Assembly (NCBI GenBank): GCA_045636085.1
Contig: JAZTWU010000122.1
Coordinates: forward strand, 1-61,328
Source: Eubacteriales bacterium
Lineage (GTDB): Bacteria; Bacillota; Clostridia; Oscillospirales; CAG-272
Direction: 5' to 3'
DNA length: 61,328 bases
Shown here one piece after another: positions 3,404-55,762 of the stretch. The first letter of the stretch is position 1. Every line of letters begins with the position of its first letter. A program made the position numbers and the translations under genes. A model generated the notes under the pieces. That model was not told where the DNA came from. It saw only the letters and a list, made by a program, of their open reading frames with translations, and did not search any database.

Positions 3404-3433
3404 TCTCTCTCTCCGATCCGTATCGGTATTGGG

Positions 3434-3472
3434 CAAAAAAGAACGCCCGATGAGGAGCATTCCCCATCGGGC
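3434..3472 (-). terminator. intrinsic terminator after the last gene of the phage-like operon
   Basis: Minus strand reads GCCCGATG-12 nt loop-CATCGGGC followed by GTTCTTTTTTG. Lies between the stop at 3517 and the cysK start. Confidence 0.5.
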
Positions 3473-5300: not shown

Positions 5301-5315
5301 GGTGATTCCTTTCAT

Positions 5316-5935: not shown

Positions 5936-5945
5936 AGCGTCTCCT

Positions 5946-7581: not shown

Positions 7582-7591
7582 AAGACCTCCG

Positions 7592-8038
7592 TTATATGGA
7601 ATCGGTTCTTTCCGAGGGGGCGCCGCAGTCCACGTGGAAATTTCCCGTGCCCCGGAAGCTGTCGCCCATCAGAAGAACCAGCGTTTTAAGTGTGCCCTCC
7701 ATTTCGGTGAGCAGGCTGTAAAGAGAGCGCCCGCCGATATCAAGGTAGGTGGAAAGGGCACCGCTTTTCAGATCGTCAAAAAGATTTTTCAGCGTGTGAC
7801 CGCTTTCCAGCCCCGTGGGGATCTCGCTCGCAAGCGAACCCGCGCCCGTGCTCCCAATGTCCGAAAGAAGGGCGTTGAAGCGGCGGATGATCAGCAGAGG
7901 GAGGCGGTCAAAGGCCTCCTTGAGCTGGGTTGCGGTGTAGCCCCTTCCGCCAAAGGCGGAGGAGGCTGTGGGGCGGGAGGGAAGCGCCGCAATGCAAAGC
8001 GGCGCGTATTCGCTCTCTAAGATAGGTTGGGTATTCAT
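7592..8038 (-). CDS. hypothetical virion protein
   Basis: 148 aa, GGAG RBS 6 nt upstream of the ATG at 8036-8038. No family recognised. Confidence 0.5.
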   Translation of the reverse strand: MNTQPILESEYAPLCIAALPSRPTASSAFGGRGYTATQLKEAFDRLPLLIIRRFNALLSDIGSTGAGSLASEIPTGLESGHTLKNLFDDLKSGALSTYLDIGGRSLYSLLTEMEGTLKTLVLLMGDSFRGTGNFHVDCGAPSERTDSI

Positions 8039-8060
8039 AATCGTCTCCGTTTCTCAGAAA

Positions 8061-10775: not shown

Positions 10776-10783
10776 AGGCCTCC

Positions 10784-11626
10784 TTATGCCCAATGATGCG
10801 TGTCAACGATTCCGTCCTCCGCATAGGAGGGGCGGCTGAGACGGATGTCACGCACGCCCTCCATATACATTTGCAGGTAAAACTGCGCCTTCGCCGCATC
10901 GTCGTCCAGCCAGAGATAGGAGGCGGTCAGCAGAGGGAGAAGGTGCGAGAAGGTCGGAGCCATATCGATCGGCGCATCGGGAGAATTTGGATTGATGGCG
11001 CGGGGCAGGCGGCGGTAGGTGAGATGAATCTCGCCCTCGTATTCGCGGGGAATGAAGAAGGTTTCATCGCGAAAATATGCGCCGGGGATCGTGGCGCCCC
11101 CCGCATCGCGGGGGAGCGCCGTAAAGCCGTAAAAGTCCGCCGTCAGCTCTCGCATCGGGTAGGTCTGATAAGGGCGCAGGACGGGAATGTCTTTCTCGGA
11201 GGTGCCGTAGGTGAAGGGAAAGCAGGCGATATCCTTCAGCTGATAGGAAAACTGCCCGCTGAGGATCAACTCGCCCTCCTTATCGGGCAAAAAGCGGCAG
11301 AATTCCATATAAGGCGATTCAAAGAAAAAGGGGGTAACTCTGTGGCGCTCCTTGAGCGTGAAATGGCCTGCCCCCGAAAACTTCATACTGAAGGAGGTTC
11401 CGTGCAGAGGGATGGTGACATCCTCTCCCGGCGTATAAATCACCTCCTCGATCAGAGACGAGGGCTGAATCGCGCGCTGCAGGAGCGTGAGCGTTTCATA
11501 GGAGGGGGAAAGGGCGCTGAGGCTTCGCAGAGCGCGGTTGGCGCAATGAAGCAGGGCGGATTTGTTTTCAATCTCGCTCTCAAAGCCGAGCGCCGCCACC
11601 TCCGAGGTCAATTCGGTATAGGTCAT
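10784..11626 (-). CDS. hypothetical protein in the head-tail adaptor position
   Basis: 280 aa, lying directly after the capsid gene. No motif recognised; the role is inferred from position only. Confidence 0.45.
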   Translation of the reverse strand: MTYTELTSEVAALGFESEIENKSALLHCANRALRSLSALSPSYETLTLLQRAIQPSSLIEEVIYTPGEDVTIPLHGTSFSMKFSGAGHFTLKERHRVTPFFFESPYMEFCRFLPDKEGELILSGQFSYQLKDIACFPFTYGTSEKDIPVLRPYQTYPMRELTADFYGFTALPRDAGGATIPGAYFRDETFFIPREYEGEIHLTYRRLPRAINPNSPDAPIDMAPTFSHLLPLLTASYLWLDDDAAKAQFYLQMYMEGVRDIRLSRPSYAEDGIVDTHHWA

Positions 11627-11633
11627 CGCGGCA

Positions 11634-12686
11634 TCAGAGCGCGGTTGCGTTCGCTACGGCGCTTGCCGAATCCACGGCGAGAAGAATGTGCTTGTAGCTT
11701 CCGAAGCCAACGCCGAAGCGGCAGCGTCCCGCCCAAAGGTAGTTGCCCGTGTGATGGTCAACCCAGTTGGAAACCGAGAGGGGAACGCGGTTGAAGAACA
11801 TATTGCCCGAGAGGTTCTTGTTTGCCTCGGAGGACATGATCATCACGCGGTCGTCCGTGGTCTGCCAGCCGGGAAGAATCACGATGTTCCAGTTGCCGAA
11901 CTGCAGGTTGATATCGTTGTAGCCGTTGCCGAGAGCACCCTCGGAGCCGCAAACCTTCTTTGCAATCATTTCGGCCGCAGGGCGGTTGCCGGGAAGGATC
12001 AGGGTGTCGGCCGTGTAGCCGAGGCTCTCGCCGTTTTCGTCCTTCATATTGCGAAGCTTCACGGAAAGCTCGGAGAGCGCCTGCTCAAAGGCCGCCGTCG
12101 AGAGCTTTCGGTCCGCGCCGGAGGCGAAAATATCGCCCCAGAAGAAATTGGACTGCGTGCCCGTATCCGTGCCGTACTTGTGCGCGGCGGAGAAGAGGGG
12201 AAGGTTGTCCGGTGCGGTCAGATCCAGCGTTGCACCGGAGAAGGCGCCGCTTGCCGCAGTTCCGCTTGCCAGCGCGTATTCGCAGATCTTGTGCATCGTC
12301 TTGTAGTAAGCACGGGTGAAGTTTTCCGCGCGGCGCTTGGCATCGGCGGCAACGCCGTAGCCCGCATCCTCCATCATTTCGGCGGTGATGACGAATTCCT
12401 TCATAAACTGAATGTGCTCGATAAACTTGCGGTAGGTCTCCGTCACGGTATCGCGCTGTGCGCCGTCTCCCTCGGGGGTAGCGGCAAAGACGTCGAATTC
12501 GTTCTGGCCAACGATGGTTTCGCCGAAGCGAGCGCTGCTCTCAACGTTGAAGAGCCAATCGCGGATGCCTCCCTTCTTGGTCAGAATATCGCTCTCGTGC
12601 TCGATCACCATCTTGATGGGAGTTTCGAGCTTTCCAATGGCGGCGTTGTTGGTGCCGACGGATTTGGAGTAAATAATAGTAGACAT
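11634..12686 (-). CDS. major capsid protein (presumed HK97 fold)
   Basis: 350 aa, following the scaffold-like gene and preceding the tail genes. Size, composition and position are typical of a capsid protein. No HMM search was run. Confidence 0.65.
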   Translation of the reverse strand: MSTIIYSKSVGTNNAAIGKLETPIKMVIEHESDILTKKGGIRDWLFNVESSARFGETIVGQNEFDVFAATPEGDGAQRDTVTETYRKFIEHIQFMKEFVITAEMMEDAGYGVAADAKRRAENFTRAYYKTMHKICEYALASGTAASGAFSGATLDLTAPDNLPLFSAAHKYGTDTGTQSNFFWGDIFASGADRKLSTAAFEQALSELSVKLRNMKDENGESLGYTADTLILPGNRPAAEMIAKKVCGSEGALGNGYNDINLQFGNWNIVILPGWQTTDDRVMIMSSEANKNLSGNMFFNRVPLSVSNWVDHHTGNYLWAGRCRFGVGFGSYKHILLAVDSASAVANATAL

Positions 12687-12707
12687 TTTGAAGCAAAAAT
12701 CCTTTCT

Positions 12708-13202
12708 TTAATTGGTTACCTTTTTGAATAAACGGTGGATCTGCGCATCGTCGAGATCCGAGAATAAGCGTCTGGCCTCCGCCATTTCCTCCGCAGAGAG
12801 CGTGGTGGAGCCAAGCGCTCCTATGCGCGGAACGGCGCTTTGCAGATGGGCGCGGTTGTCGCTTCTTTTGCGAGGCGCACCGCCCGTGGCAAGATAAGCC
12901 TCTGCGGGACTGAGGCCGAGCTCTCGCAGCTCGGCATAGCGCACGGGGTTGGGAAGTGCGCCGAGCGATGCAAGCCCCGCGAGAGCGGGAAACTGCGCCT
13001 TCAGCGCCGCAAGATCCTCTTTTGCGATTTTTTCGTAATCCTCCGCGGCGAGTGCGGCTTCCTCCGCCTCTGTTTCGAGGATTTCCTCGGAAGGCGCCGC
13101 GGTTTCCTCGGAGAAGGTCTCCGCTTCGCCTTCAATCTTCAGTTCTGCGGCGGCGAGGGGCTCGTCCGCTCTTTCGCCGTTTTCAAGAAGCGTCTCGTCC
13201 AT
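12708..13202 (-). CDS. scaffolding protein (acidic, helical)
   Basis: 164 aa, Glu/Ala-rich (EAEEAALAAEDYEKIAKEDLAALKAQF), immediately upstream of the capsid gene. Confidence 0.55.
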   Translation of the reverse strand: MDETLLENGERADEPLAAAELKIEGEAETFSEETAAPSEEILETEAEEAALAAEDYEKIAKEDLAALKAQFPALAGLASLGALPNPVRYAELRELGLSPAEAYLATGGAPRKRSDNRAHLQSAVPRIGALGSTTLSAEEMAEARRLFSDLDDAQIHRLFKKVTN

Positions 13203-13205
13203 AGA

Positions 13206-13343
13206 TCAGCCCTTCTTTCTCTTGGAGCGCAGATCGTCTCCCACGGTCTTGGTTACGCGGGGCTCGCCTGCGGTGATATTGTTCGGGGCACAGATCCTTC
13301 CGCCCTTGTTGGTTGCATAGGTGGATTGTCTTTCCTTTTTCAT
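13206..13343 (-). CDS. small basic protein (45 aa), absent from the ORF track
   Basis: My translation is MKKERQSTYATNKGGRICAPNNITAGEPRVTKTVGDDLRSKRKKG. AAAGGAA lies 5 nt upstream of the ATG at 13341-13343. It fills the gap between two operon genes. Confidence 0.35.
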   Translation of the reverse strand: MKKERQSTYATNKGGRICAPNNITAGEPRVTKTVGDDLRSKRKKG

Positions 13344-13367
13344 AGCAGTTCCTTTCATTCGTAAAAA

Positions 13368-14018
13368 TTAATTCGTTTTGTCAAAGATTTGAGGCACGGT
13401 GGTTCCTCCGATTACCTGCGCGTATTTGCCGAAGCGCTCGACCTCCTCCTCCGAGAAGCCAAGGGAGCGCGCATAGCCCTCCACTCGAACTCTCGAAAGC
13501 CTTTGCTCAAGGATCATTTCAAGCAGGCGCGAGGCGGCTCTCTGCTTTGCCGCGACAACGCCGAGCTCGGCGGCAACCCTTGCGTTTTCCTCCGTCAGGC
13601 CTCCTGCGATCGCCTTGTTAAAGGCGCTTTCAAGATCAAAGCTTCCGTCACTTTCAATGCTGTCGATCATTTGCATGCGAAGGCGATCCTGCCTGTCCTC
13701 GTGCGAGGTCAGGTATTTTGCATAGCCCGCAAGGTTTTTCTCCTTCACGGCGGCATTGTCCGATGCGTATTTCTGCTTTGCGGCGGAGAAGCTGCGATCG
13801 GCCTCGTTGGCAAGAAAACGCGCGTAGCCGCTGCTCTGCAAGCCCCTTTCGGAGAGCCATTCCGCATTTTTGCCGTAGGTCGGTGCGCTTTTTGCGCGTG
13901 CGGTTGCCGCCGCATCGGGCGTCACGGTGTTCGTATTTGCCGTTCCGTGCTTGCGGATCCAGGCGGCAAAGCTGCTCGGCTCGTTTTCCTTCTTCTTTTT
14001 CGTGAGCAAATCCGTCAT
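13368..14018 (-). CDS. hypothetical head-associated protein
   Basis: 216 aa. Its ATG overlaps the portal stop (ATGA at 14015-14018). No family recognised. Confidence 0.5.
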   Translation of the reverse strand: MTDLLTKKKKENEPSSFAAWIRKHGTANTNTVTPDAAATARAKSAPTYGKNAEWLSERGLQSSGYARFLANEADRSFSAAKQKYASDNAAVKEKNLAGYAKYLTSHEDRQDRLRMQMIDSIESDGSFDLESAFNKAIAGGLTEENARVAAELGVVAAKQRAASRLLEMILEQRLSRVRVEGYARSLGFSEEEVERFGKYAQVIGGTTVPQIFDKTN

Positions 14019-15784
14019 CCGATCACCTCCTCACCGATATCTCGTTGCATTGCTTCCTCTCGCACGGCACCACGGAAATATTCCACATTCTCCCTTGCGT
14101 ACGGGTAATGTGCGCGCTCCTGACTTTGCCAGTAGCGCAGAAGGGTGGCACTCCTCGAAGGATCGCCCAGCGCGCCACTACGCAGATTTTCCAGATTCTT
14201 TTGCCAAAGAACCTCTCTTTGCGCCTCTGCGCCTCCGTTAAGATCCACGGAAAAGAGAAAATCGTCGTCGTAATAAAGCGTGCCGCTTCCCTCGTCGCAG
14301 AGAATGAAGTCGTAGCGGTTGAAGGTCGCGTTGTGCATACGGCCGAAGGCATCGGTATAAGAGATCTGCCTCGGCTCGTCCGCAAAGGAAAGATGATGCT
14401 CAAAGATCAGTCGGTCGATCTCGGCATAGGCCGTGTATTTCATCTTGCGCTTGGATTCGAGGCGCCCCGAGGCCTGCGAGATCTGCAGGCTTCTTGCATA
14501 GCCGGATTCGTTTCGGCTGTTGTCAATGCCGACGAGCGCATCGGAAATACCGAGAATGCGCTTGGCCTGATCGTAAAGGCGGGTGGCCTCCGCGATGTCC
14601 TGTGAAATGTCGGGGGTGGTATCCACCTTGCCGTATTGCGCCGCGCTTTCGCCGGGCTTCATCTTGATCATCTGGCCGAAAACCGAGTTGTTGAGGGTGA
14701 TGGTGGCATCCTCGGGAACCACGGGGGTAACGCCGGCGCGCAGAAGCTTTTGCAGAATGCGGGATTCGATCTTGTTGATCGCCTGCTGCTGCGGGCGGAT
14801 GATCTCGCAGTCCGAGGCGCCGAAAAGGCTTCCCTCCAGCGAGGTGTTTCTTCGGATCACGATGGGGAAGCGCTTGGGCGTATAATAGGGAACGCTGATG
14901 CCTCCGTCCTCCTGCTCCGAGGGGGAAAAGATTTTCGTTCCGTCCGAAAGCTCTGTGACTTGCAGATGCTCCTCGCTCTGGTTTTGCAGAGTGAACTGCG
15001 GATGCTCGCAAAGGCAGTTTTGCTCCTCGCTGTGGCAAGCGGAGCAGAATCTCCGCTTTCTGGCGTAGTAATCGGGAATGTCTGTCAGCGTAAGCTCGCC
15101 CGAAAATGCGTATTCACCGATTCTGCCGTCCGTGTCGCGATAAAAGCAAAGGATCACGGTTGCGCCCTCCTCCGCCTCTCCCTCGTAGGTCTCGCTGTCC
15201 CATTCTCTTTCGGCCAGAGAAAGCGCCTCCGCCGAAACACCCCATTTGCGCATAAGCTCGGCCTTCGTCGTGTCAAAGCGCAAAAAGCAGTAGTCCATAT
15301 CCTCAATGGTACGCGCGCCCGGCTGAGGGATGAAGTCCTTCGGGGAAAGGCAATGCACGGAAACGCCGCCGATGCGGTTGCCAAGCCCCTCGTGGCTATC
15401 CCATTCCACGAACCAGACGCTTCCGCCGTATATGTAGCTGTATCGCTCGTCGAGGTCGTTCATTTGCTCGTAGGGGAGCTTTTCGCGCACCGCGGAAAGC
15501 AGGCGCTCCACGCTCTGCGCAAGGCGAAGCTTCTTTTCGCTGTAAGCCGTCGGATCCACCTTCGGGGGCGGGATGTGGGAGGAGACCTGACTCTCGATCA
15601 TCTCGTAGGTGATGTTGCGCACGGTCAGCGCCTTCTCGGTGGAGCCGTCGATCTCGGTCGTTCCGCGATATTGCCGCATATGGCGGTCAAAGAGCGTGCG
15701 CCCCTCTGCGGCCGCATTCCTGCTCTTTTGGTAAAGCGAGGAAAAATAAGCGAGCCGCTCGGATTTTGTTTTGTTTTGTGTCAT
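14015..15784 (-). CDS. portal protein
   Basis: Starts MTQNKTKSERLAYFSSLYQK at the ATG 15782-15784, overlapping the terL stop. 589 aa, directly after the large terminase. The first ~200 codons of track ORF 14015..16387 are an out-of-frame overlap with terL. Confidence 0.8.
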   Translation of the reverse strand: MTQNKTKSERLAYFSSLYQKSRNAAAEGRTLFDRHMRQYRGTTEIDGSTEKALTVRNITYEMIESQVSSHIPPPKVDPTAYSEKKLRLAQSVERLLSAVREKLPYEQMNDLDERYSYIYGGSVWFVEWDSHEGLGNRIGGVSVHCLSPKDFIPQPGARTIEDMDYCFLRFDTTKAELMRKWGVSAEALSLAEREWDSETYEGEAEEGATVILCFYRDTDGRIGEYAFSGELTLTDIPDYYARKRRFCSACHSEEQNCLCEHPQFTLQNQSEEHLQVTELSDGTKIFSPSEQEDGGISVPYYTPKRFPIVIRRNTSLEGSLFGASDCEIIRPQQQAINKIESRILQKLLRAGVTPVVPEDATITLNNSVFGQMIKMKPGESAAQYGKVDTTPDISQDIAEATRLYDQAKRILGISDALVGIDNSRNESGYARSLQISQASGRLESKRKMKYTAYAEIDRLIFEHHLSFADEPRQISYTDAFGRMHNATFNRYDFILCDEGSGTLYYDDDFLFSVDLNGGAEAQREVLWQKNLENLRSGALGDPSRSATLLRYWQSQERAHYPYARENVEYFRGAVREEAMQRDIGEEVIG

Positions 15785-17145
15785 AAGGGTTCTCCGTATT
15801 TGCGTTTTAGATATTGCCTTCCTTCCTCGTCGGCGGCGAAATAGTCCTCCCACATATCGGCGCTCCAGGGCCGTCCGTGCCGCTCCGTGGGGACGGGGGC
15901 GGGGCGGGTGAAATAAACGGCGAAGCCGCGCAGAGCATCGGGGGCATGCGTAATATCGTGCGGCTCGGTGGCGCAGTCGCTGGGGCGGTGCTTGTCTATT
16001 TGCAGGGCGGGAAGGCAACGGATCAGCTCGGTGCAGTGCGAAAAAATGGAGAGCATCGGGGCGCCGTCCTTTTCCCTCAGAAGCTCCTTCAGGCAGAGCC
16101 AGCCGGCCTCGCGGTTGTTGGAGCTCTTCGTGAAGGGAATGCCATAGGAGGCAAAAAGGGTGGCCTTGCTTTTTCCGCTTTCCTGACTGCGGCTGAAAAG
16201 ATCGGGGGGCGCGAGCGTTGCATAGATCTGCTCGTGCGGCGGCGTGTGCGATAGAATTTCGGCGGCCGCCTCGCCGATGGGGAGATCCGAGATGCAAAGC
16301 TCTCGGTAAACGTAGGCTCGTCCCTCCGGGCTCACGGCGATCCATAGGCAGGCGAGACGGTCCAGCCCATAATCCACCGTGCGCCATTTTCTCCAGCCGC
16401 TCGGAATTTCGAAGGGTGCACAGGTATGCTTTGCCGCTGAAAATTCGGAAAAATACTGCCCGTCGAAAATATTCCAGTCGCCATAGAGGAGCGCCTTTTG
16501 CTCCTTTTCGGGAAGCGAGAGAAGCCGCTTTTTATAGTCGGGATCTCCTTCGCTGAGAAAGCGGTTGTCCGAAAGAAGAGAGGGGAGAAAGATCCGCGAG
16601 AGCCCGTCCGATCCCGAGAAGGGGGTCTCGGGAGGCGAGGGGTCAACGAAGCGCGCCTTCACCCATCCGTGCCCGATCCCGCCGGGATTGGTGGAGGACT
16701 TGATCTGCTTCGGAAAGGCGTTTGCCCCGCGAACGCGTGAGATGAGATACAGATACTGTGCCTCGGTGAAATGCGTCAGCTCGTCGAAGCGAACGATATC
16801 GTATTCCGCGCTCTGGTATTGGTAAACGTCGTTTTCTGCCGCGCAGTAGCCAAAGTCGATGCAGGAGCCGTTTTTGAATCGGCCGAGGTGGGCGGTCGAA
16901 TTGAAACGGTAGATCTCCCTTGGGAAAAGCGCCAGTGAGGTGCGGATCAGGGATTTTTCCAGCTCTGCAAAGCTTCTTCGGAGAATCAGCTGCTTGGAGC
17001 CGGGATAGAGGAGCGCCGTTGTCAGCGCATCCACAAGCTGGCCATAGGACTTGCCGCCGCCCGCCGCGCCGCCGAATAAAACCTCGGTTGCGGTGGCATC
17101 CATAAAGGCCTTCTGCTTTTTTGTGAGCGTGAGATGCAGCTTCAA
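15781..17145 (-). CDS. terminase large subunit
   Basis: Walker A GGAAGGGKS near the N-terminus and a C-terminal nuclease-type region. TTG start at 17143-17145 with GGAGG 7 nt upstream, overlapping the terS stop. Confidence 0.85.
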   Translation of the reverse strand: MKLHLTLTKKQKAFMDATATEVLFGGAAGGGKSYGQLVDALTTALLYPGSKQLILRRSFAELEKSLIRTSLALFPREIYRFNSTAHLGRFKNGSCIDFGYCAAENDVYQYQSAEYDIVRFDELTHFTEAQYLYLISRVRGANAFPKQIKSSTNPGGIGHGWVKARFVDPSPPETPFSGSDGLSRIFLPSLLSDNRFLSEGDPDYKKRLLSLPEKEQKALLYGDWNIFDGQYFSEFSAAKHTCAPFEIPSGWRKWRTVDYGLDRLACLWIAVSPEGRAYVYRELCISDLPIGEAAAEILSHTPPHEQIYATLAPPDLFSRSQESGKSKATLFASYGIPFTKSSNNREAGWLCLKELLREKDGAPMLSIFSHCTELIRCLPALQIDKHRPSDCATEPHDITHAPDALRGFAVYFTRPAPVPTERHGRPWSADMWEDYFAADEEGRQYLKRKYGEPL

Positions 17146-17477
17146 GAGAGCACCTCCAGCGTCACCGAAAGAGAGGAATCCTCCCCGTCCTGTCCGTTTT
17201 CGCTCTCGTCATCCAGAAGGTACTTGACGAAGGAGGCGTCAAACCGCTTTGTCAGTGCTCGGTCAATCAGGTAATCCCTGCGGATTTCACCGCATTCGCG
17301 GATGGCGCGCTCAAAGTCCTTGTGCCCTTTGAAGGCGAGAAGCTGTTCGGTTGTGTATCCCTGCGATCGGGCGAATTTGTGAAGGCTGGGGGCGCTCTTC
17401 TCATCGTCGTAGCAGGCGAAAAAGCTATATAGCCGTCTCGGAAGATCGCGCTCGTAGGCGCGCTTTTTCGTTTTCAA
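17142..17477 (-). CDS. terminase small subunit (start uncertain: TTG 17477 with strong RBS, or GTG 17525)
   Basis: Basic N-terminus, an HTH-like core (SLHKFARSQGYTTEQLLAF) and an acidic tail. AAAGGAGAA lies 7 nt upstream of the TTG at 17475-17477. Confidence 0.65.
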   Translation of the reverse strand: MKTKKRAYERDLPRRLYSFFACYDDEKSAPSLHKFARSQGYTTEQLLAFKGHKDFERAIRECGEIRRDYLIDRALTKRFDASFVKYLLDDESENGQDGEDSSLSVTLEVLS

Positions 17478-17527
17478 GGAGGTTCTCCTTTCTTTCGTTT
17501 TTCGAGAGCTTTGCCTCTCGTGCACTT

Positions 17528-17586
17528 AGTATACCAAAGAATTTTTTTTCCGTAAGTATAGTGCATTTCCAAAAATCACCTATCAA
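17528..17586 (-). promoter_or_regulatory. candidate promoters of the phage-like operon
   Basis: On the minus strand, TTGATA (17581-17586) is followed by CACTAT at 17 nt or TATACT (17555-17560) at 20 nt. A second, extended -10 TGgTATACT lies at 17528-17536. Confidence 0.4.
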
Positions 17587-17595
17587 GTGACTTTT
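17571..17595. promoter_or_regulatory. palindromic operator copy A: AAAAATCAC-CTATCAA-GTGACTTTT
   Basis: Both 9-nt half-sites and the 7-nt spacing are identical to the site at 54552-54576. The flanking tcc and the downstream tttgtg are also shared. Confidence 0.6.
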
Positions 17596-17675: not shown

Positions 17676-19592
17676 TTACATTGTGAGCTCGTAAAGAGAA
17701 AGAAGCTCCTCCTCAATCTCGCTCTTTCTTTTGTCGATTTCTGCCGCGCGCAGATAATCGCTTGCCGCCTCGCCGAAAAGCTCCTCCTCCAGCGCCTCAA
17801 GCTCCTTTTCGAGCGCCTCGATCTTCTCCTTGGCGCGCTCAAGCTTCTTTTGCTCTCCGCGCTTTTTTGCGGCCTCCTTCTTCTTTTGCTCGTATTCCTC
17901 CTTGCCTGTGCTGATCTGCACGGGCTGAGCCTGCATCGCGTGGCTTTCGCGCTTTTCCTTGAGCTTCAGATATTCCGTATAGGCATCGTCGTATTCCTCA
18001 AGTCGGTAGTCGAGCATACCGCGCTCCGTATGCGGATCCAGCTCGATGATGCGCGTGGCCAGGCGATTGATAAAGTAGCGGTCGTGCGAAACGGCAACGA
18101 TCGTGCCGTCAAAGGCGAGGAGCGCGTTTTCCAGCGCCTCGGCAGAGCCGATATCCAGGTGGTTGGTCGGCTCGTCCATCACGAGCAGGTTCACCTTTTT
18201 GAGAATGAGCTTTGCAAGCGTCAGTCTTGCGCGCTCACCGCCCGAAAGCACCTTCACGCTCTTGTCGATATCCTCTGCGCCGAAGAGAAAGAGCGCCAGC
18301 GCCGAGCGAAGCTCAAGATCCGTCATCAACGGATAGCTTTCCCGCATTTCGGAAAAAACCGTATTGTGCTCGCCAAGACCGCGGTTTTCCTGATCGTAGT
18401 AGCCGATCTTGATATTGTATCCAAGCTCCACACGGCCGCCCTGCGGCACAAGCCGACCGTTGATGATCTTCATCAGCGTGGATTTTCCCGATCCGTTCGG
18501 GCCGAGGAAAAGTGTTCTCTCTCCCTTTTCTATTAAGAAGGAAAGATTTTCGATCAGCGGCGCGCCGCCGTAGGAAAAGCAAAGCTCCTTCGCCTCAATG
18601 ACGTGCCCTGTGCTCTCGCTCTCGGAAAGAAAGCGCATACGGATCTCCTTCTCGGGCCCCTTGGGCTTTTCAATCTTTTCCATTCTGGCGAGCTGCTTTT
18701 CCTTGGAGCGGATGGTCACGAAATTGTGCTCGCGGTTGCATCTGCGCTGAAATTCGATATTCTTGCGGATGCGCTCGATCTCCTTTTGCTGCTCCTTATA
18801 GCGCTTTTCGAGCGAGGCGCGCTCGGCCTCCATCTGGAGCTTGGCCTTAGAATAATTCCCGAAAAAGATTTTGGCAACGCCGTCCTGGATCTGCATCGTC
18901 TTCTCCGTGGTGCGGTCAAGGAAATAGCGGTCGTGCGAGATGATCAGCACGGTTTTCTTATAGCCTGCAAGATAGCCCTCCAGCCAAGCAAGGGCATCAA
19001 GGTCGAGATGGTTGGTCGGCTCGTCAAGCATCAGCACGTCCGGCTCGGTGGCCAGAAGGCGCGCAAGCGAGAGTCTCGTATACTGTCCGCCCGAAAGGGT
19101 GGAGATGGTTTGCGAAAGCTGTGCCTCCGAAAAGCCGAGGCGCAGAAGCATTCCTCTTGCGCGGGAGCGGAATTCAAGTCCGCCCTCATTTGCAAAGCGC
19201 GTGTTGAGCGCCGAGAGGCGGGCGGAAAGCGCATTCACCTCGTCGTGCCCTGCCACGGTCAGCGCGTGGGAGGTTGCCTCGATCTCCTCCTCCAAGGCGA
19301 GAAGGGCGGGGAAGGCGGTGATCATATATTGCTCCATCGTCATATTTCCGGGGAGTGCCGTGAGGTCGGCGTTTTGCTCAAGAACGCCAACCGTATAGCC
19401 CTTGCGCAGGCTCACAGTGCCCTGATCGGGGGTGTATTGTCCCGAAAGCAGGCGGAAGAGCGAGGTTTTTCCTGCGCCGTTGGTGCCAACGATGCCGATA
19501 TGCTCGCCGTCCTGTGCGGCGAAGGTGATATCCTTCAATATTATATTATCCCCGAAGGAGAGGGAGAGGGAGGATGCGGAAATTGCGATCAT
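17676..19592 (-). CDS. ABC-F family ATPase (EttA/Uup-like translation factor type)
   Basis: Two ABC cassettes (Walker A GTNGAGKTS and GPNGSGKST; signatures LSGGQ and LSGGE), no TM domain, Lys/Glu-rich coiled-coil tail. Confidence 0.9.
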   Translation of the reverse strand: MIAISASSLSLSFGDNIILKDITFAAQDGEHIGIVGTNGAGKTSLFRLLSGQYTPDQGTVSLRKGYTVGVLEQNADLTALPGNMTMEQYMITAFPALLALEEEIEATSHALTVAGHDEVNALSARLSALNTRFANEGGLEFRSRARGMLLRLGFSEAQLSQTISTLSGGQYTRLSLARLLATEPDVLMLDEPTNHLDLDALAWLEGYLAGYKKTVLIISHDRYFLDRTTEKTMQIQDGVAKIFFGNYSKAKLQMEAERASLEKRYKEQQKEIERIRKNIEFQRRCNREHNFVTIRSKEKQLARMEKIEKPKGPEKEIRMRFLSESESTGHVIEAKELCFSYGGAPLIENLSFLIEKGERTLFLGPNGSGKSTLMKIINGRLVPQGGRVELGYNIKIGYYDQENRGLGEHNTVFSEMRESYPLMTDLELRSALALFLFGAEDIDKSVKVLSGGERARLTLAKLILKKVNLLVMDEPTNHLDIGSAEALENALLAFDGTIVAVSHDRYFINRLATRIIELDPHTERGMLDYRLEEYDDAYTEYLKLKEKRESHAMQAQPVQISTGKEEYEQKKKEAAKKRGEQKKLERAKEKIEALEKELEALEEELFGEAASDYLRAAEIDKRKSEIEEELLSLYELTM

Positions 19593-49553: not shown

Positions 49554-49714
49554 GTATATGTTGCATATAAATTTTTTCTCAAAATCGTCTTTTTGCCTAT
49601 GGAAAATACGGGCGCGGTGTGCTATAATATAGATATAAAATTATAGGATGCGGAAATTGCGCCTATTTTTCGGTTTTGTTAATCAAAAAAGTTTTATATA
49701 CATAGGAGAGTTGT

Positions 49715-52624
49715 ATGAAAAAACTGCAGAAAATCCTGATGCTGGCCGTTTCGGTCGCTATGCTTGTGGGAATTTTCTCCATTGCCTCCGCCGCGGCGGC
49801 AACGATGGAGCCCTCGCAGGTTCTGGCACAGTTCGATGGTGAAAAGGACGGATCCGCCACGAATTCGACGATTGCGGTCAATAGCTCGTCTTCCGCTAAT
49901 AAGTATTACGAGATTGATTTCACCAAGGATGGCGGAAACGTCAACTTCGGCGGAAGCAATATTGCATTCCTCGGTAAGGGTGATTATATCGTCACCGAGT
50001 TCGACTTTATGGCTGAGGATTGGACGACGGTGAAGAGCCTTACCGTCGGCTGGAACTCCCGTAACAGCGCGAACGGTGCTTTGAACGATATGCACTTCAA
50101 CTTCTCCAATAGCGCGGGTCAGCCCAAGATCACCGGCTCGCCTCTTGCGGGTAGCGTTACGCTGGATTCCAAGCCCGGCACCTGGCATCACTTCACGCTG
50201 ATCGTGCAGGTTGGCGGAACGCATAAGGACAACGGAAACTTCCTTTCTGCCCTGCAGGGACAGGATGCGGTTGAGGCTTACGCTTATATCGACGGTGAGC
50301 TCTTCGCAAAGAACCTGATCGGCGACGGCAAGGAATTCTGGTCGAAGGATACCACCTATTTCCAGACCTTCCGTATCACGGCCTCCGGTGCAAACCAGAG
50401 AATCTGCCTTGATAACCTCTATATCGCACAGTATCAGACGAGCCGCGAGCTTCGCGAATTCTTCAACTACCGTGTGAAGAACGGTGGCGAATTCCCCGAT
50501 CTGAATGCTGTCTCCTATCCCTTCCTTCAGTACGATGCAAACTACGATTATCCGCTCGGAACGCCCACTCTCAAGGTTGTTGAGGTGAACGGAACGGAGA
50601 CGATGTTTGACCGCTTTGATAAGGCTTGTAAGTTCGCCTCCACCCTTTCGGGTGCAAAGATCGTTCTTCTTGCGGACATCGAGGATGTGGTTGTAAAGTA
50701 TCCCGTTTTGATTGACCGTGCAGGCTATAAGATCAGCTATGAGGTTGAGCCTCAGCTTCGCGGTGTGGAAAAAGAGATCGTCAACCCCATCACCGGTAAG
50801 AAGTCCTACGAGCTTTCCTTTATTAAGAAAACCAAGTATGCTTATTTTGCTTGGGAGGTAGATCACACGGGTCTTGTTCTTGATTCCAGAGGATACACCC
50901 CCATCACCGTCGGAACCCCCGTTGTTTATGACGGCACGGAGATTCCCGCGCAGTACTGCCTCGACGGTGTGCTTTATACCTTCAACGGCCAATGGAAGCT
51001 GAACGGAGAGATTCTCTCCACGGTTCCCGAATACGCCGCAAACTCTTATTACAGACTCGTTCCCGTGATCAAGGCGAAGAACGTATTTGCCACGATCACC
51101 GTAAATGATGTTGAAACCTATGCGCTCTCCCGCAGTGAATTCGTTGAGATGATTGCAGAAGCACCCGCAGGTGCCGAGATCAAGCTTCTGCGCGATATCA
51201 CGGTTGAAGAGCCGATTGTGATCAACGCGGGCATCACCTTGGATCTTGCAGGTAACAAGCTGGCGGTTTCGGGTGAAAACAGCGCAATCGTTCTTTCCGA
51301 GACGGCCGCAGGTGCCGAGATCAAGTCCTCTGTCGCCGGCGGCGTGATTGAGAACCTCGGTGCGATCTTTGATGCGGCTTGCTCCTTCGAGGTGAAGGGC
51401 GAAAATCTTATGGCCTTCGGTTCTGCTCTCCTTAAGACCGATGCCGAGATTGCCGATGTGAAGATCGAGGGCGGTGTCTTCGTTCTGAGCGGTGCAAAGG
51501 CTCTGCTCGTTGGTGCAGATGCTTCGCTTTCCGCAGAGATCTCTGCGGCTCTGATTGCCAAGAATGCGGCTCTGATCGATTCCTCCGCAGCCTATGCTCT
51601 GAAGCTTGGCGGCGCGATTTCCGGCATTTCTCTTCCCGCATCCGAGACCTCCACGGTCGTTCTCGCTAAGGGCCTTGCTCTTTCCGGCGTGAGCGTTCTG
51701 GTTGGTGCGGCTCTTCCCGAGGGCGTTTCCCTTGCGGATGAAGCGCTCGTTCTTGCCACCAAGAAGGGCGAGACGGTTTACGGCGATGCCGTGCTTGCAA
51801 CCGACTGCATCGTAACCGAGAAGACCGGTCTGGCTCTGATCGTTTGGGCAGATGGCGTTTGTGAGTACGCCATTCCCGGCGAAAAGGTTTATTACCTCTA
51901 TCCCTCTATCTACGATACCAAGAAGTTCTATACGCCGAATGGCAATTACCTCTTCACCGTGGACGGTGAGACGGTGCTCGGCAATGTAGTTTCCGAGGAT
52001 TGGGCAGGACTCACCGTAGCCGCTCAGCCCGATTACGATTCTAAGGCATTCTTCGTTTTGGCCGCTAAGCCCGACGGAACCTTTGATTACTTCGGAAACT
52101 TCGTAAATCTTGCCGCTCTTCTTTCCTCCGATGCATATGAGGCAGGCACGACCTTCGTTATCGGCCGTAGCAATATGCTCCTTGAGGATGCAACCGTTGT
52201 CGGTGATTATGCAATTGATCTGAACGGCTATGCTTTGACTCTCGCAAGAACCAATAAGGTTCAGGGCGGATCGCTGAAGATCTTCTCCACCGCCGAGGGC
52301 GCAAGCATCATCTCCTCGGGTGCACGTGCATTCTATCTCATCGGCGGAACGCTGGAGATCGATGGCATTGCATATGTAGGCGGAACGCTTGCAGAGATGG
52401 ATGCAACCTCTGTTCTGAAGATCAAGGACGGCGCGTTCATCCTTGGCGAGGCTGAGTTCTGCAAGGCAGAAACCGGCGCTCTCCTCGTGATTGAAACGTT
52501 GACCGCCGATAAGGAGCTCTTCGCCGCCGCAGACGGATTTGCTTGGATTCAGGCAAATGATGAGGTCGAGGTAAACGGCGCGCTTCTTCCCGTAACCGTG
52601 AAGTACGAGAAGGAAGCAGAGTAA
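49715..52624 (+). CDS. large secreted protein: signal peptide, LamG/ConA-like N-terminal domain, beta-helix-like repeats
   Basis: Signal peptide MKKLQKILMLAVSVAMLVGIFSIASAAAA. WHHFTLIV...YIDGELF is lectin-fold-like. Repeated ITLDLAGNKL / AIDLNGYAL units. No LPXTG or SLH motif seen. Confidence 0.7.
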   Translation: MKKLQKILMLAVSVAMLVGIFSIASAAAATMEPSQVLAQFDGEKDGSATNSTIAVNSSSSANKYYEIDFTKDGGNVNFGGSNIAFLGKGDYIVTEFDFMAEDWTTVKSLTVGWNSRNSANGALNDMHFNFSNSAGQPKITGSPLAGSVTLDSKPGTWHHFTLIVQVGGTHKDNGNFLSALQGQDAVEAYAYIDGELFAKNLIGDGKEFWSKDTTYFQTFRITASGANQRICLDNLYIAQYQTSRELREFFNYRVKNGGEFPDLNAVSYPFLQYDANYDYPLGTPTLKVVEVNGTETMFDRFDKACKFASTLSGAKIVLLADIEDVVVKYPVLIDRAGYKISYEVEPQLRGVEKEIVNPITGKKSYELSFIKKTKYAYFAWEVDHTGLVLDSRGYTPITVGTPVVYDGTEIPAQYCLDGVLYTFNGQWKLNGEILSTVPEYAANSYYRLVPVIKAKNVFATITVNDVETYALSRSEFVEMIAEAPAGAEIKLLRDITVEEPIVINAGITLDLAGNKLAVSGENSAIVLSETAAGAEIKSSVAGGVIENLGAIFDAACSFEVKGENLMAFGSALLKTDAEIADVKIEGGVFVLSGAKALLVGADASLSAEISAALIAKNAALIDSSAAYALKLGGAISGISLPASETSTVVLAKGLALSGVSVLVGAALPEGVSLADEALVLATKKGETVYGDAVLATDCIVTEKTGLALIVWADGVCEYAIPGEKVYYLYPSIYDTKKFYTPNGNYLFTVDGETVLGNVVSEDWAGLTVAAQPDYDSKAFFVLAAKPDGTFDYFGNFVNLAALLSSDAYEAGTTFVIGRSNMLLEDATVVGDYAIDLNGYALTLARTNKVQGGSLKIFSTAEGASIISSGARAFYLIGGTLEIDGIAYVGGTLAEMDATSVLKIKDGAFILGEAEFCKAETGALLVIETLTADKELFAAADGFAWIQANDEVEVNGALLPVTVKYEKEAE

Positions 52625-52647
52625 GCTTCTCCCAAATAACAAAAATA

Positions 52648-52683
52648 AGGGCGAGTGAAAAAACGGCACTCGCCCTTTTCTTT
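52648..52683 (+). terminator. intrinsic terminator (first of a tandem pair)
   Basis: AGGGCGAGTG-9 nt-CACTCGCCCT followed by TTTCTTT. Confidence 0.75.
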
Positions 52684-52791: not shown

Positions 52792-53892
52792 ATGCGAAAG
52801 AAGGGAAGAATCGCCGTCGTGATCGGAACGCGGCCGGAGGGGATCAAGCTTTGCCCCCTTGTTTTGCAGATGCGCGAAAGCGGAATGGATGCGGCGGTTT
52901 TCACCTCCGGCCAGCATGGAGATCTGCTTTCGTCGGTGATGGATATATTCGGCGTGCAGGCAGATGTTGCGCTTGCGCCCGTGCATTTTGGGGAGGACCT
53001 TTGCGGCCTCGTTTCGCATTTGCTTCGCTCCTTCGGAGAATGCTTTGCGGCCGCATCCCCCTCGCTTGCGGTCGTGCAGGGGGATACAGCAACCGCATAT
53101 GCCGCCGCTCTGGCCGCTTTCTTAGCGCGCATCCCCGTGATGCACGTGGAGGCAGGCCTGCGCACGGGTGCGCCCTTTTCTCCCTTTCCCGAGGAGGCTT
53201 TTCGCCGAGAGATTGCCGCAATGGCGAGTCTGCATATCGCGCCCTCGCCGCAAGCTATGCGGCATTTATGGCAGGAGGGGGTTCCGAAACGGTGCACGTA
53301 TCTCTTTGGGAATACGGTGGAGGATGCCCTGCGGCGGCTTTTGAAGGGAAGATGCAGACCGAGTCGGCAAGCGGTATTGACGGTGCATCGCCGCGAGCAT
53401 AGTGAGGCGGCGCTTCGCGGTATCTTTTTTGGTGTTCGGGCGCTGATGGATCGCCTTCCCGCGCTTTCGCTTCTGTATCCGATGCATCCGAGTCCGCGCG
53501 TGCGGTGCGTTGCCGAAGGGATTCTCGGCGGTCATCCGCGCATTCGGCTCTCTCCGCCTCTCCCCGTTTTGGATTTTTATCGGGCGCTCGCATCCGCCCC
53601 CTTAGTGCTCACGGATTCGGGAGGGGTGCAGGAGGAGGCCTCGCTTCTCGGGATTCGCACCCTCGTTTTGCGGGAAAATACGGAGCGTGAGAGTGAGCTT
53701 CAAGGCGGTGGCCTTATGCTCGGCGGAACGGCGCCCGAGCGCATCGTTTCGCTTGGTGAGAGACTTTTGTCCTTGCCACCTCCAAAAAGAAAGGAGAGTC
53801 GAATCGGCTCTCCGAGTGCAAGGATTTGCAAATTGTTGCTTGCATTTAAAGAAGTCGGCTTTGATAAGCAACGGCTTTTCCAAGGATTTTAA
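52792..53892 (+). CDS. wecB: UDP-N-acetylglucosamine 2-epimerase
   Basis: GTRPEGIKL and DSGGVQEEA motifs. The ATG at 52792 has AAGGAGG 7 nt upstream. The 3' end overlaps the convergent repressor gene by 47 nt. Confidence 0.85.
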   Translation: MRKKGRIAVVIGTRPEGIKLCPLVLQMRESGMDAAVFTSGQHGDLLSSVMDIFGVQADVALAPVHFGEDLCGLVSHLLRSFGECFAAASPSLAVVQGDTATAYAAALAAFLARIPVMHVEAGLRTGAPFSPFPEEAFRREIAAMASLHIAPSPQAMRHLWQEGVPKRCTYLFGNTVEDALRRLLKGRCRPSRQAVLTVHRREHSEAALRGIFFGVRALMDRLPALSLLYPMHPSPRVRCVAEGILGGHPRIRLSPPLPVLDFYRALASAPLVLTDSGGVQEEASLLGIRTLVLRENTERESELQGGGLMLGGTAPERIVSLGERLLSLPPPKRKESRIGSPSARICKLLLAFKEVGFDKQRLFQGF

Positions 53893-54457
53893 CGCTGTTC
53901 AGCTCCTCGTCCATGAAAACGAGCGGCTCGTATTTCGGGTTTTCGGGGGAGAGAATCAGCTTGTTTTTTTCCGGGTAGAAATAAACGCGCTTGAGCGTTG
54001 CCTCATCTCCTATAATGACGGCGGCGATCTCTCCGTTTTCAACGGTGTCCTGCGCGCGAATGAAGACGATATCTCCGTCAAAGATTCTTGCCCCGATCAT
54101 AGAGTCACCGCTGGCGGCAAGACAGAAATCCGCATCGATATTTCCTCCCGGGGTGCAAAAGCTTCCGTATTCGCTTTCGGCAAGGATCGGTTTTCCGCAG
54201 GCGATGCGGCCGAGAAGCGGCAGGCGCTTGGTCGTGATCTGCGGGTATCCCTCGGATTCGCCCTCCCAGCCCATCAGCGCGGCAGGCGTTGTCTCCAAAG
54301 CAATCGCCAGAGCCTCCACCTTTTCGGGAGGAATATTGGCGATGGTTCCGTTTTCGTATCGGTGGATCGTTTGTTTGCTCGTGCCGATGCGGGTGGCAAG
54401 CTCCTCCAGCGTCAGCCCCAGTGCTCTGCGGCGGATTTTAAGTTCATTGCAAATCAT
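53846..54457 (-). CDS. XRE-family HTH / S24 peptidase self-cleaving repressor (phage cI-like or LexA-like, not canonical LexA)
   Basis: N-terminus RRRALGLTLEELATRIGTSKQTIHRYENG is an XRE-type HTH. S24 catalytic motifs are GDSM (Ser) and ATLKRV (Lys). The predicted cleavage region is LLGRIACGKPIL. Start MICNELK at 54455-54457. Confidence 0.85.
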   Translation of the reverse strand: MICNELKIRRRALGLTLEELATRIGTSKQTIHRYENGTIANIPPEKVEALAIALETTPAALMGWEGESEGYPQITTKRLPLLGRIACGKPILAESEYGSFCTPGGNIDADFCLAASGDSMIGARIFDGDIVFIRAQDTVENGEIAAVIIGDEATLKRVYFYPEKNKLILSPENPKYEPLVFMDEELNSVKILGKAVAYQSRLL

Positions 54458-54492
54458 AGGGAATTTTCTCCTTTTTTGTCGAATCCACATAT

Positions 54493-54521
54493 AGTATACA
54501 CTACTGTCACTTATTATGCAA
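54493..54521 (-). promoter_or_regulatory. sigma-A type promoter of the repressor gene
   Basis: Minus strand reads TTGCAT-17 nt-TATACT. Confidence 0.55.
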
Positions 54522-54551
54522 TAGTTTTTCGAAAAAAATGAAAAAAACTCC

Positions 54552-54576
54552 AAAAATCACTTGACAAGTGACTTTT
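54552..54576. promoter_or_regulatory. palindromic operator copy B (O1): AAAAATCAC-TTGACAA-GTGACTTTT
   Basis: Near-perfect inverted repeat (8 of 9 positions) centred on the -35 hexamer. Same half-sites and spacing as 17571-17595. Confidence 0.65.
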
Positions 54577-54590
54577 GTTTGTGGTATCAT
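54561..54590 (+). promoter_or_regulatory. strong sigma-A promoter divergent from the repressor gene
   Basis: TTGACA-18 nt-TATCAT with a TGg extended -10. Confidence 0.7.
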
Positions 54591-54609
54591 AGTCACGCAT
54601 CAGGTTACT
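54591..54609. promoter_or_regulatory. weaker operator-like site O2: AGTCAC-N7-GTTACT
   Basis: Same 7-nt spacing as O1, with one mismatch to the core palindrome. Lies directly after the -10 element. Confidence 0.4.
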
Positions 54610-54655
54610 GTTTTGCTATTATTCCACAATTAAGTGACGAAAGGAGAGGGTTTTT

Positions 54656-54943
54656 GTGCCAGCGGAATGGATGGCGAGAGAGGAAGAGGATTTTGTGGAT
54701 TCGCTTTTTTCCCTGCAGGGAGAAATACAGGCCTTGGCAAATCGCGGTCGCGCGGTAAATGTGCGGCTGAACGTTCGGGAGCTCGTGGCTCCCTTGTCCT
54801 TCGGAGGGGTTTCGGAGGTCTCCGTCCGCGCGCTTTCAACGATGATGCGCGAGGTAGCGGCGATACGAGCACATCTTTCCCAGCTTGCGGAGAAGCTTTC
54901 GCTTCTTGCAGGGGAGATATTTGCGGAGGGAGGTGTTGCTTGA
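54656..54943 (+). CDS. hypothetical 95-aa protein, first gene of the repressor-controlled transcript
   Basis: GTG start with AAGGAGAG about 9 nt upstream. Helical, acidic N-terminus. No family recognised. Confidence 0.5.
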   Translation: MPAEWMAREEEDFVDSLFSLQGEIQALANRGRAVNVRLNVRELVAPLSFGGVSEVSVRALSTMMREVAAIRAHLSQLAEKLSLLAGEIFAEGGVA

Positions 54944-55329
54944 TGTGCCCGAAGGAGAATATAAAAGAAAAGGAAGAAAAGGGTATTCCCGAAAGTGCAG
55001 ATGCGCTTGCGGCGGCACTTTGTGCGGATTATTTCCGAAGGGAGCGCGCCATTGAAACGGGGGAAGCACCCCTGCGCGTTCGGATGGAATACGAATATTT
55101 GAATCGCAAGATCTATACGGCGGCGCGTGAGCTCTGCGAGGGGGCAGACGATGCGCTTGGCTACATAGAGGAGATCGGTGCGCGACGTGGCTATGCAAAA
55201 AGCCGCTTCACGGTCAGCGAAAAGACCTATAAGGTGAAAAAGCGCGAGGTGAAGCTCAATATTTTGCGTCGCCTCTTTTTGCTGGAGAGTGAACGCGGCC
55301 GAGCCTCGTCCGAGGAGGCCGAAAAATAA
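54943..55329 (+). CDS. 128-aa protein, possible RinA/ArpU-like late-gene activator (unverified)
   Basis: The ATG overlaps the upstream stop (TGATG). N-terminal LCADYFRRERAI and a C-terminal HTH-like tail (FTVSEKTYKVKKREVKLNILRRLFL) resemble the layout of small phage late activators by eye. Confidence 0.45.
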   Translation: MCPKENIKEKEEKGIPESADALAAALCADYFRRERAIETGEAPLRVRMEYEYLNRKIYTAARELCEGADDALGYIEEIGARRGYAKSRFTVSEKTYKVKKREVKLNILRRLFLLESERGRASSEEAEK

Positions 55330-55378
55330 AAACCGGCTTCGCGTGTTTTGACATTTTTTTCATTCTGCATCTGATATA

Positions 55379-55762
55379 ATGGAGACGGATCAAAGAAAGA
55401 ATGAAGGAATGGCCAAAAAAATGTCTGAAAAAAATGAAAATCTCTCTCTTTCCTACCGTGCGGATACGCTTTCGGCTACATTGCTTTGCGAGGTGGATCA
55501 CCATAAGGCCAAGCCCTTGCGCGAGGCGATCGACCGCGCCGCATTTGCTTATAGGCCGCGTGTGCTCGCGCTGGATTTCTCTGCCGTTCGATTTATGGAT
55601 AGCTCGGCGATTGCCCTGATCCTCGGGCGCTCTGCCCTGGGGGAGGATCTGGGCTTTCGCGTTGTGCTCACGGGGCTTTGTCCCACAGCGGAAAGGCTTC
55701 TCAGGCTTTCCGGAATCGAAGGAAGAAAAAATATTACCGTGCAACGGGAAAAGAAGGCTTAA
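55379..55762 (+). CDS. spoIIAA: anti-sigma-F factor antagonist SpoIIAA (STAS domain); start uncertain (55379, 55409 or 55421)
   Basis: LDFSAVRFMDSSAIALILG with the phosphorylatable Ser context. Followed by spoIIAB and sigF. Confidence 0.8.
   Translation: METDQRKNEGMAKKMSEKNENLSLSYRADTLSATLLCEVDHHKAKPLREAIDRAAFAYRPRVLALDFSAVRFMDSSAIALILGRSALGEDLGFRVVLTGLCPTAERLLRLSGIEGRKNITVQREKKA

Follow-up and report, generated by a model that had tools for sequence, protein, structure and literature searches.

A candidate control module beside spoIIA for a podovirus-like, gene transfer agent-type element in gut Clostridia

In Bacillus subtilis, the XRE-family protein Xre silences the defective prophage PBSX, an SOS-inducible domesticated particle element, and a small factor, Xpf, turns on its late operon. 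Xre has no S24 domain, and the regulatory genes of PBSX are contiguous with the element. In the Caulobacter gene transfer agent (GTA), the RogA repressor acts on a two-gene activator operon, GafY-GafZ, which is encoded apart from the ~14-kb cluster under its control (PMC9632790, PMC11150451). Podovirus-like GTA-type elements with dispersed operons have been described in Faecalibacterium and inferred in gut Ruminococcaceae, Oscillospiraceae and Christensenellaceae, with random packaging of host DNA in particles reported for related gut families and large amounts of bacterial DNA moved in the gut by GTA-like particles; no repressor or activator is mentioned for FpGTA (PMC12946183). Here we describe a three-gene locus, comprising a repressor gene (rep) and two small open reading frames (ORFs), ORF95 and ORF128, on a 61,328-nucleotide stretch of an Eubacteriales bacterium of the GTDB lineage CAG-272 (GenBank assembly GCA_045636085.1, contig JAZTWU010000122.1, positions 1 to 61,328), hereafter the window. 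We consider it reasonably probable that this locus controls a domesticated, podovirus-like GTA-type element, the structural operon of which is found at a distance of 37 kb, and that it combines an SOS-type switch with a candidate late activator.

The locus shares features with several described systems. Like LexA, lambda cI and UmuD (MEROPS S24), of which UmuD is cleaved at Cys-Gly, its repressor has an S24 domain, a Ser-Lys dyad and a predicted small-residue-Gly bond in the linker, but unlike LexA it begins with an XRE-type helix-turn-helix (HTH) and not a winged helix. Divergent promoters, here with candidate autoregulation, resemble the cI/cro region, whereas the repressor gene, unlike that of phage cI, occupies a fixed chromosomal site and not a prophage. 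The proposed logic of an XRE repressor plus a small positive factor would parallel Xre/Xpf of PBSX, from which the locus differs in the 37 kb between switch and element, in the S24 domain of the repressor and in the lack of a sigma-factor match for ORF128. Repressor, remote two-gene operon and structural cluster likewise recall RogA/GafY-GafZ, by analogy only; this locus, unlike the Caulobacter GTA, is from Clostridia, concerns a podovirus-like element and has a repressor predicted to be of the self-cleaving type. ORF128 resembles the RinA/ArpU activators in that its relatives lie directly before terS in phages and in its small size, basic character and comparable pattern of C-terminal helices, and differs from them in lacking a profile match, a sigma region 4 or HTH match and a PDB fold match. 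The element, known here from genes alone, is by description like FpGTA: both are of podovirus type, with a ~10-14-kb terS-terL-portal-capsid operon that has no lysogeny or replication genes, dispersed loci and gut Clostridia as hosts.

Candidate operators at the module and at the terS promoter

The features on which the argument rests are as follows (positions in the window; loci from other genomes are cited by L numbers).

53846-54457, minus strand: repressor gene, 203 aa, XRE-type HTH plus S24 domain (Pfam, PHROG).
54493-54521, minus strand, read from 54521 to 54493: repressor promoter P_rep, TTGCAT-17-TATACT (sequence).
54506-54512, unstranded: candidate autoregulation half-site GTCACTT in the P_rep spacer (sequence).
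54556-54572, unstranded: candidate operator O1, ATCACTTGACAAGTGAC, a 17-bp palindrome of the GTCAC-N7-GTGAC type, containing the -35 TTGACA.
54561-54590, plus strand: ORF95-ORF128 operon promoter, TTGACA-18-TATCAT with TG upstream (promoter scan, 15-locus conservation).
54592-54608, unstranded: candidate operator O2, GTCACGCATCAGGTTAC (AGTCAC-N7-GTTACT, 54591-54609), directly 3' of the -10.
54632-54638, unstranded: half-site AAGTGAC, directly 5' of the ORF95 ribosome-binding site, kept in 14/15 loci.
54656-54943, plus strand: ORF95 (orfA), 95 aa, GTG start, with orthologs in all module loci and in a paralogous cassette.
54943-55329, plus strand: ORF128 (orfB), 128 aa, candidate late activator of an unannotated family, overlapping ORF95.
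3517-17477, minus strand: structural and packaging operon (PHROG matches: terminase, terL, portal, major head).
17528-17574, minus strand: terS promoter block, TTTTTGGAA-N6-TATACTTAC-N18-TATACT, with TGG before the -10.
17575-17591, minus-strand reading: remote operator-like site GTCACTTGATAGGTGAT, directly upstream of the terS promoter block.

A first-pass annotation, made from the letters of this DNA alone, had proposed back-to-back promoters for the repressor and the plus-strand transcript, with one operator over the -35 of the latter and a second just after its -10. Sequence and promoter scan bear out both promoters, that of the ORF95-ORF128 operon matching the consensus at 11/12 positions, and both operators are present as claimed: the O1 palindrome TCACTTGACAAGTGA spans 54557-54571, over the plus-strand -35, and O2 surrounds the expected transcription start. 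Overall, this regulatory region is kept almost base for base in 15 aligned loci. The -35 (GCAAT on the plus strand) and -10 region of P_rep are kept in these loci and the GTCAC in its spacer in 12/15 (GTAAC in L015 and L016; L017 deviates), while the O1 core CTTGACAA is invariant, the -10 of the ORF95-ORF128 promoter is conserved and the GTCACG..ACAG of O2 is found in 15/15. In L002 and L012, the 17 bp of O1 form a palindrome without mismatch, GTCACTTGACAAGTGAC. The AAGTGAC before ORF95 may act in DNA, as an operator half-site, or in RNA, as the 3' arm of a stem that the GTCAC of O2 completes in the 5' untranslated region. The operator consensus of the module, GTCAC-N7-GTGAC (or, with the last base relaxed, GTCAC-N7-GTGAY), does not resemble the LexA box of Firmicutes; when up to one mismatch is allowed, GTCAC-N7-GTGAC has 5 matches in the window versus 0.43 expected, which together with the 15-locus conservation takes the pattern beyond chance. 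Matches at 25342, inside a long ORF, and at 30656, which has no recognisable promoter, are probably fortuitous and have GC-rich spacers. The spacer between the repressor gene and the operators is widened in L002, where a 22-nt unit, GCGAAATAAGCATAGAATTTGC, is repeated in tandem about six times (7234-7368).

The same type of operator recurs at the head of the structural operon, which lies 37 kb from the module and on the opposite strand. In the closest relative, whose terL is 93% identical, the site upstream of terS reads GTCACCTATTAAGTGAT instead of GTCACTTGATAGGTGAT, the half-sites being kept and the N7 spacer changed, and an operator-type site stands at the same place in L038, L040, L051, L068, L078 and L083. 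A metagenome scan with a terL alignment added 80 further loci, and across the 82 non-redundant loci used for the operator count we found 15 operator-type sites in 41.5 kb of terL-upstream sequence (-900 to -300 relative to terL) versus 11 in the remaining 841 kb, a 28-fold enrichment (Poisson P about 5e-17). The site adjoins the conserved terS promoter block directly in many lineages, and TGcTATAATaGTCACGCAACAGG, which is the -10/O2 block of the module promoter, stands at the head of the terS operon in L061 and L065. A second species has a comparable layout: contig JAGBBQ010000042.1 (54.8 kb) encodes an ORF128 homolog (MBP3605519.1) and a terL product (MBP3605487.1) 32 protein accessions apart, and this ~32-gene spacing matches the ~37 kb between module and operon in the window. 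The regulatory link to the operon at 3.5-17.5 kb that the first-pass annotation had suggested is thus supported by an operator of the same type at the terS promoter, recurring in many related loci, and the switch appears to belong with that operon.

The terS promoter block has no canonical -35, yet its TTTGGAA, TACTTAC and -10 elements are kept in 17 sequences from ~14 lineages with terL 68-93% identical (the window and L024-L083; consensus TTTTTGGAA-N6-yTrTACTTAC-N17/18-TAnAAT). Such conservation of a promoter that lacks a -35 suggests that it is served by a dedicated activator or sigma-like factor. The block occurs once in the window, with no second copy that would mark a second operon, and the TTTGGAA/TACTTAC motif was not found in the late-promoter regions of phage loci. 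Just 3' of the -10, the terS 5' leader holds a hairpin, CGAGAG-gcaaag-CTCTCG (17503-17520, minus strand), that has no U-tract; its counterpart in L027, CGGAAGG-aaaag-CCCTTCCG, looks like the product of compensatory changes.

The operon itself encodes a terS-like protein (111 aa), terL, portal, head proteins, an adaptor, a 910-aa protein and further ORFs. The 910-aa protein (8061-10793, minus strand), whose counterparts in relatives have 901-904 aa and carry Pfam LRR_5, may be a receptor-binding or tail component, and the portal and adaptor matches in the operons of relatives are of podovirus SU10/P22 type. Host genes bound the operon, with an ABC-F gene at 17676-19592 on one side and a PALP enzyme gene at 2471-3460, followed by genes for a TadA-like deaminase and a glycosyltransferase, on the other; no integrase, replication or lysogeny genes lie adjacent to it. 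It stands downstream of ABC-F in the same gene order in genomes with terL 93%, 86% and 72% identical. Homologs of terL form >5,751 clusters, and the best 120 (71-93% identity) are nearly all 452-456 aa long, with one of 469 aa, and in many cases lie on long chromosomal contigs. Vertically inherited GTA-like elements are marked by just such a syntenic, host-flanked operon without integrase or replication genes, and the structural cluster accordingly looks like a domesticated, podovirus-like representative of that class.

The repressor and its place beside spoIIA

The repressor matches Pfam HTH_3 (E 1.1e-13) at its N-terminus, where LexA would have its winged-helix DNA-binding domain, and Peptidase_S24 (PF00717) over residues 80-196 (85.4 bits against a cutoff of 23.3). 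In PHROGs it falls into phrog_4, transcriptional repressor (E 2e-37), and the nearest solved structures are LexA C-terminal domains (E 2e-15), followed by UmuD and the HTH of the 434 repressor. Against the LexA equivalog TIGR00498 it scores 87.5 bits, under the cutoff of 110.95, and aligns over residues 76-197 only, which makes the protein LexA-like in its predicted mechanism but not LexA proper. IACGKP occupies residues 85-90 and places the predicted scissile bond at Cys87-Gly88; GDSM (117-120) and TLKR (154-157) supply Ser119 and Lys156 of the predicted Ser-Lys dyad. IACG, GDSM and LKR are invariant across 14 repressor orthologs, in which the HTH region is also almost unchanged. These matches, motifs and conservation bear out the earlier description of the gene product as an XRE-type HTH plus S24 repressor with a predicted Cys-Gly site. 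In L017 (783-1390), the ortholog aligns as two pieces in different frames, which points either to a frameshifted pseudogene or to misassembly of this metagenome-assembled genome from horse gut.

We found the module in 12 species (scan of one genome per GTDB species), and in 12/12 the gene order is rep (minus strand), orfA, ORF128, spoIIAA, spoIIAB, sigF, groES and groEL. Identity to the window across these species is 85-98% for groEL, 62-87% for rep and 42-80% for ORF128, and the left flank of the module varies by lineage. A gene for a 419-aa oxidoreductase-like protein stands between rep and the orfA-orfB operator and promoter in L015 (3871-5130) and L016, the remainder being intact, which indicates that the divergent arrangement of rep and orfA is not obligatory. 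The first-pass annotation had called the module an orphan, perhaps relocated or perhaps one half of a split prophage. This was not borne out on either side, as the 12 species share the module's place beside spoIIA and relatives with terL 72-93% identical have the structural cluster at a constant site between host genes; judged by these comparisons, both loci are ancient, fixed and vertically inherited features of the chromosome.

The spoIIAA promoter (window 55340-55381; same region in L001-L017) is conserved, combining an extended -10, TGcTATAAT, with a (T)TCGACA/TTGACA element that resembles a Spo0A box; L002, L012, L014 and L015 have several further GTGTCGAA-like boxes. No terminator-like site was found between ORF128 and spoIIAA in the window, and read-through from ORF128 is therefore a possible reason for the adjacency, although spoIIAA has its own conserved promoter. 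At 49694-52669 (plus strand), the window encodes a conserved, secreted-looking 969-aa protein (46-58% identity in neighbouring species); the 991-aa ORF that runs antisense over its full length is most likely a composition artefact.

A paralogous three-gene cassette occupies an unrelated chromosomal site in L020 (5992-7318) and L021, encoding an XRE protein followed by products of 96-113 aa and 105 aa, among them a more distant member of the ORF128 family. Its operator, GTAAC-N7-GTGAC, is similar to that of the module, and its repressor keeps the HTH while the S24-like domain has neither the Cys-Gly site nor the serine. In L019 (1210-2380), on a 2.5-kb contig, an ORF128-family member lies directly 3' of a rolling-circle initiator gene (REP_ORF2-G2P), from which it appears that the family also travels on small replicons.

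ORF95, ORF128 and their relatives in phages

The sequence confirms the overlapping 95-aa and 128-aa ORFs of the earlier annotation, with a GTG start at 54656 and a TGATG junction at 54941-54945. ORF95 is present in every module locus, translationally coupled to the following gene throughout. It is acidic (pI 4.9), helical and fast-evolving, with the motif L-N/S-V/I-R-E/D-L and a leucine-rich C-terminal helix, and its AlphaFold2 model has three helices at low confidence (predicted local distance difference test (pLDDT) 61). ORF128 is basic (pI 8.4), with five helices in its structure model (pLDDT 80.6) and 31 invariant positions among 24 sequences. Its close homologs (n = 57) were found only in uncultured gut Clostridia, and a profile search of 1.84 billion representatives recovered relatives of 100-120 aa in 221 clusters, none with a Pfam domain; by this search, the unannotated family around ORF128 numbers at least 221 clusters.

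Profile searches assigned neither product to a known family, with no match for either in Pfam, NCBIfam, PHROGs or PADLOC, and distant members of the ORF128 family matched only phrog_11237 (function not assigned; E 3e-5) when compared with Pfam and PHROGs. No sigma region 4, sigma-factor or HTH domain was matched by ORF128 in Pfam and NCBIfam searches, and no membrane segment or likeness to known division inhibitors was seen in either protein in Pfam, PHROG and NCBIfam searches. A Foldseek comparison of the ORF128 model with the PDB gave no fold match (best E 3.4), and the best viral fold match, to a metagenomic protein annotated 'Transcriptional activator', was weak (probability 0.96, TM 0.57, E 0.76). 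A tobamovirus coat protein match in a PDB-sequence profile search (E 1.2e-5) was rejected as an artefact of a tandem-fusion chain (i-E 0.63 per copy). No relatives of ORF128 were detected in IMG/VR by a scan with the ORF128 alignment, and 50,697 phage genomes searched by tblastn with three family members gave no match.

The earlier annotation had likened the 128-aa protein to RinA/ArpU-type late activators by eye. That likeness did not hold up in profile comparisons: ORF128 had no match to TIGR01636 or TIGR01637 (RinA/ArpU) at E up to 1, one of 19 family members matched ArpU (E 0.058), and hhalign against 80alpha RinA returned a probability of 7.5% over the last 22 C-terminal residues only, the stretch to which the visual resemblance corresponds.

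Gene position gave a different picture for the family than for the window gene. Running the family hidden Markov model over all fetched loci, we found ORF128-family genes 0.7-2 kb upstream of terL in 12/39 loci with terL <67% identity, on the same strand in all except L095, versus 0/17 loci of the chromosomal clade. The family member is immediately upstream of terS in L053, L056, L060, L062, L087-L090 and L093 and about 1.5-2 kb upstream of terL in L063, L064 and L095. True phage contexts, in which DNA methyltransferases, SSB and dUTPase are encoded, surround the family member in L089, L064 and L053: it directly precedes terS-terL in L089 and L053, with no gene between, and terS is about 1.3 kb downstream of it in L064. 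The RinA-type position therefore applies to relatives of ORF128 in related phages and not to the window gene, which is 37 kb from terS and on the other strand. The same division holds for a contiguous ancestral arrangement, seen in related phages and not in this lineage.

Proposed mechanism, alternatives and meaning

In the mechanism that we propose, a repressor dimer on O1 and O2 would keep the ORF95-ORF128 promoter off, repressor on the half-site in P_rep would limit its own synthesis and, in many lineages, repressor on the site beside the terS promoter would damp that promoter as well. DNA damage would activate RecA, and stimulated self-cleavage at Cys87-Gly88 would derepress the operon. 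ORF95 and ORF128 would then be made, and ORF128, possibly with ORF95, would activate the -35-less terS promoter with its TTTGGAA and TACTTAC elements, turning on the structural operon and leading to phage-like particles. A terS promoter that has conserved upstream elements and no -35 is consistent with dependence on an activator, though not proof of it.

Several observations weigh against this reading. The terS operator is absent or degenerate, with the promoter block kept, in L024, L027, L036, L039, L047, L069 and L074, one of these being the lineage of JAGBBQ010000042.1, where terL shares its contig with a module; direct repression of terS would thus be widespread but not universal. Where present, the site lies at about -70 to -54, upstream of the -35 region, and so not where a classic occluding operator would be. 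No DNA-binding domain and no significant match to known activators could be detected in ORF128, and ORF95 was not found in the phage loci. We infer the binder of the operator sites solely from their position around the repressor gene, and binding, cleavage, activation and particle production are likewise inferred from sequence.

A first alternative is a module that is mainly a host regulator of stress or cell fate, comparable to lexA with divergent SOS effectors such as yneA or sosA, in which ORF95 and ORF128 act on division or sporulation and the terS operator is a secondary co-option. Invariant adjacency to spoIIAA in 12 species, the lack of a terminator-like site before spoIIAA in the window, a paralogous cassette in an ordinary chromosomal context and the lineages that have no terS operator all fit such a role. 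We nevertheless regard it as unlikely, given that a conserved promoter with a 0A-box-like element serves spoIIAA itself, that the relatives of ORF128 are phage genes directly before terS, that operators are strongly enriched at terS promoters and that neither small protein has a membrane segment or resembles a division inhibitor. The enrichment could also be read differently, with the terS sites bound by another XRE protein and their similarity to O1 and O2 reflecting shared phage ancestry of promoter DNA. Binding by the repressor is indeed a prediction from sequence position, and the whole -10/O2 block in L061 and L065 could be inherited promoter sequence, but the 93% relative retains the half-sites around a rewritten 7-bp spacer, as expected under selection on protein contacts, and the HTH is nearly invariant among repressor orthologs; we consider a different binder distinctly improbable.

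Two further explanations would loosen or recast the tie between the loci. One is that the three genes act on their own, as a toxin-antitoxin, addiction or anti-phage defence cassette with no relation to the structural operon, as the three-gene paralog at another site (L020/L021) and the family member beside a rolling-circle Rep gene on a 2.5-kb contig might suggest. We think this very unlikely: PADLOC gives a generic HTH only, searches with ORF128-family sequences did not find the cassette in IMG/VR or the 50,697 phage genomes, its position is fixed and it evolves at about the rate of neighbouring core genes, and the operator link to terS would be left unexplained. The chances are slimmer still for an orphan half of one prophage, parted from the structural operon by recent relocation or rearrangement. 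Such an origin would account for a phage-cI-like repressor (phrog_4), a structural cluster that has no lysogeny module and an operator joining both loci, yet the module stays beside spoIIA in 12 species with groEL 85-98% identical, the structural cluster keeps its host site down to 72% terL identity and the ~32-gene spacing returns in a second species. With both loci syntenic to this degree, any separation would be ancient and fixed; their opposite strands are also unlike the outcome of a simple insertion between them.

If the locus is the control module of a GTA-type element, as we favour, a more far-reaching version of this reading can be put forward, which we regard as possible but speculative. 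It would be the first master switch of the podovirus-like GTAs of gut Clostridia, with a dedicated LexA-like repressor that DNA damage cleaves at Cys-Gly to release the two-gene operon, with ORF128 as the founding member of a late-activator family acting on the TTTGGAA...TACTTAC promoter, and with its placement before spoIIAA-spoIIAB-sigF coupling lyse-and-release to the sporulation decision.

The analysis also defines the ORF128 family (at least 221 clusters, unannotated), for which gene position in phages suggests a role in late-gene control. The repressor, the operator and ORF128 are the first candidate regulators for the recently described gene-transfer elements of the gut. A conserved repressor, operator and candidate activator would make induction of such GTA-like elements directly testable, and the parts of the module would serve as sequence markers for these elements in metagenomes.

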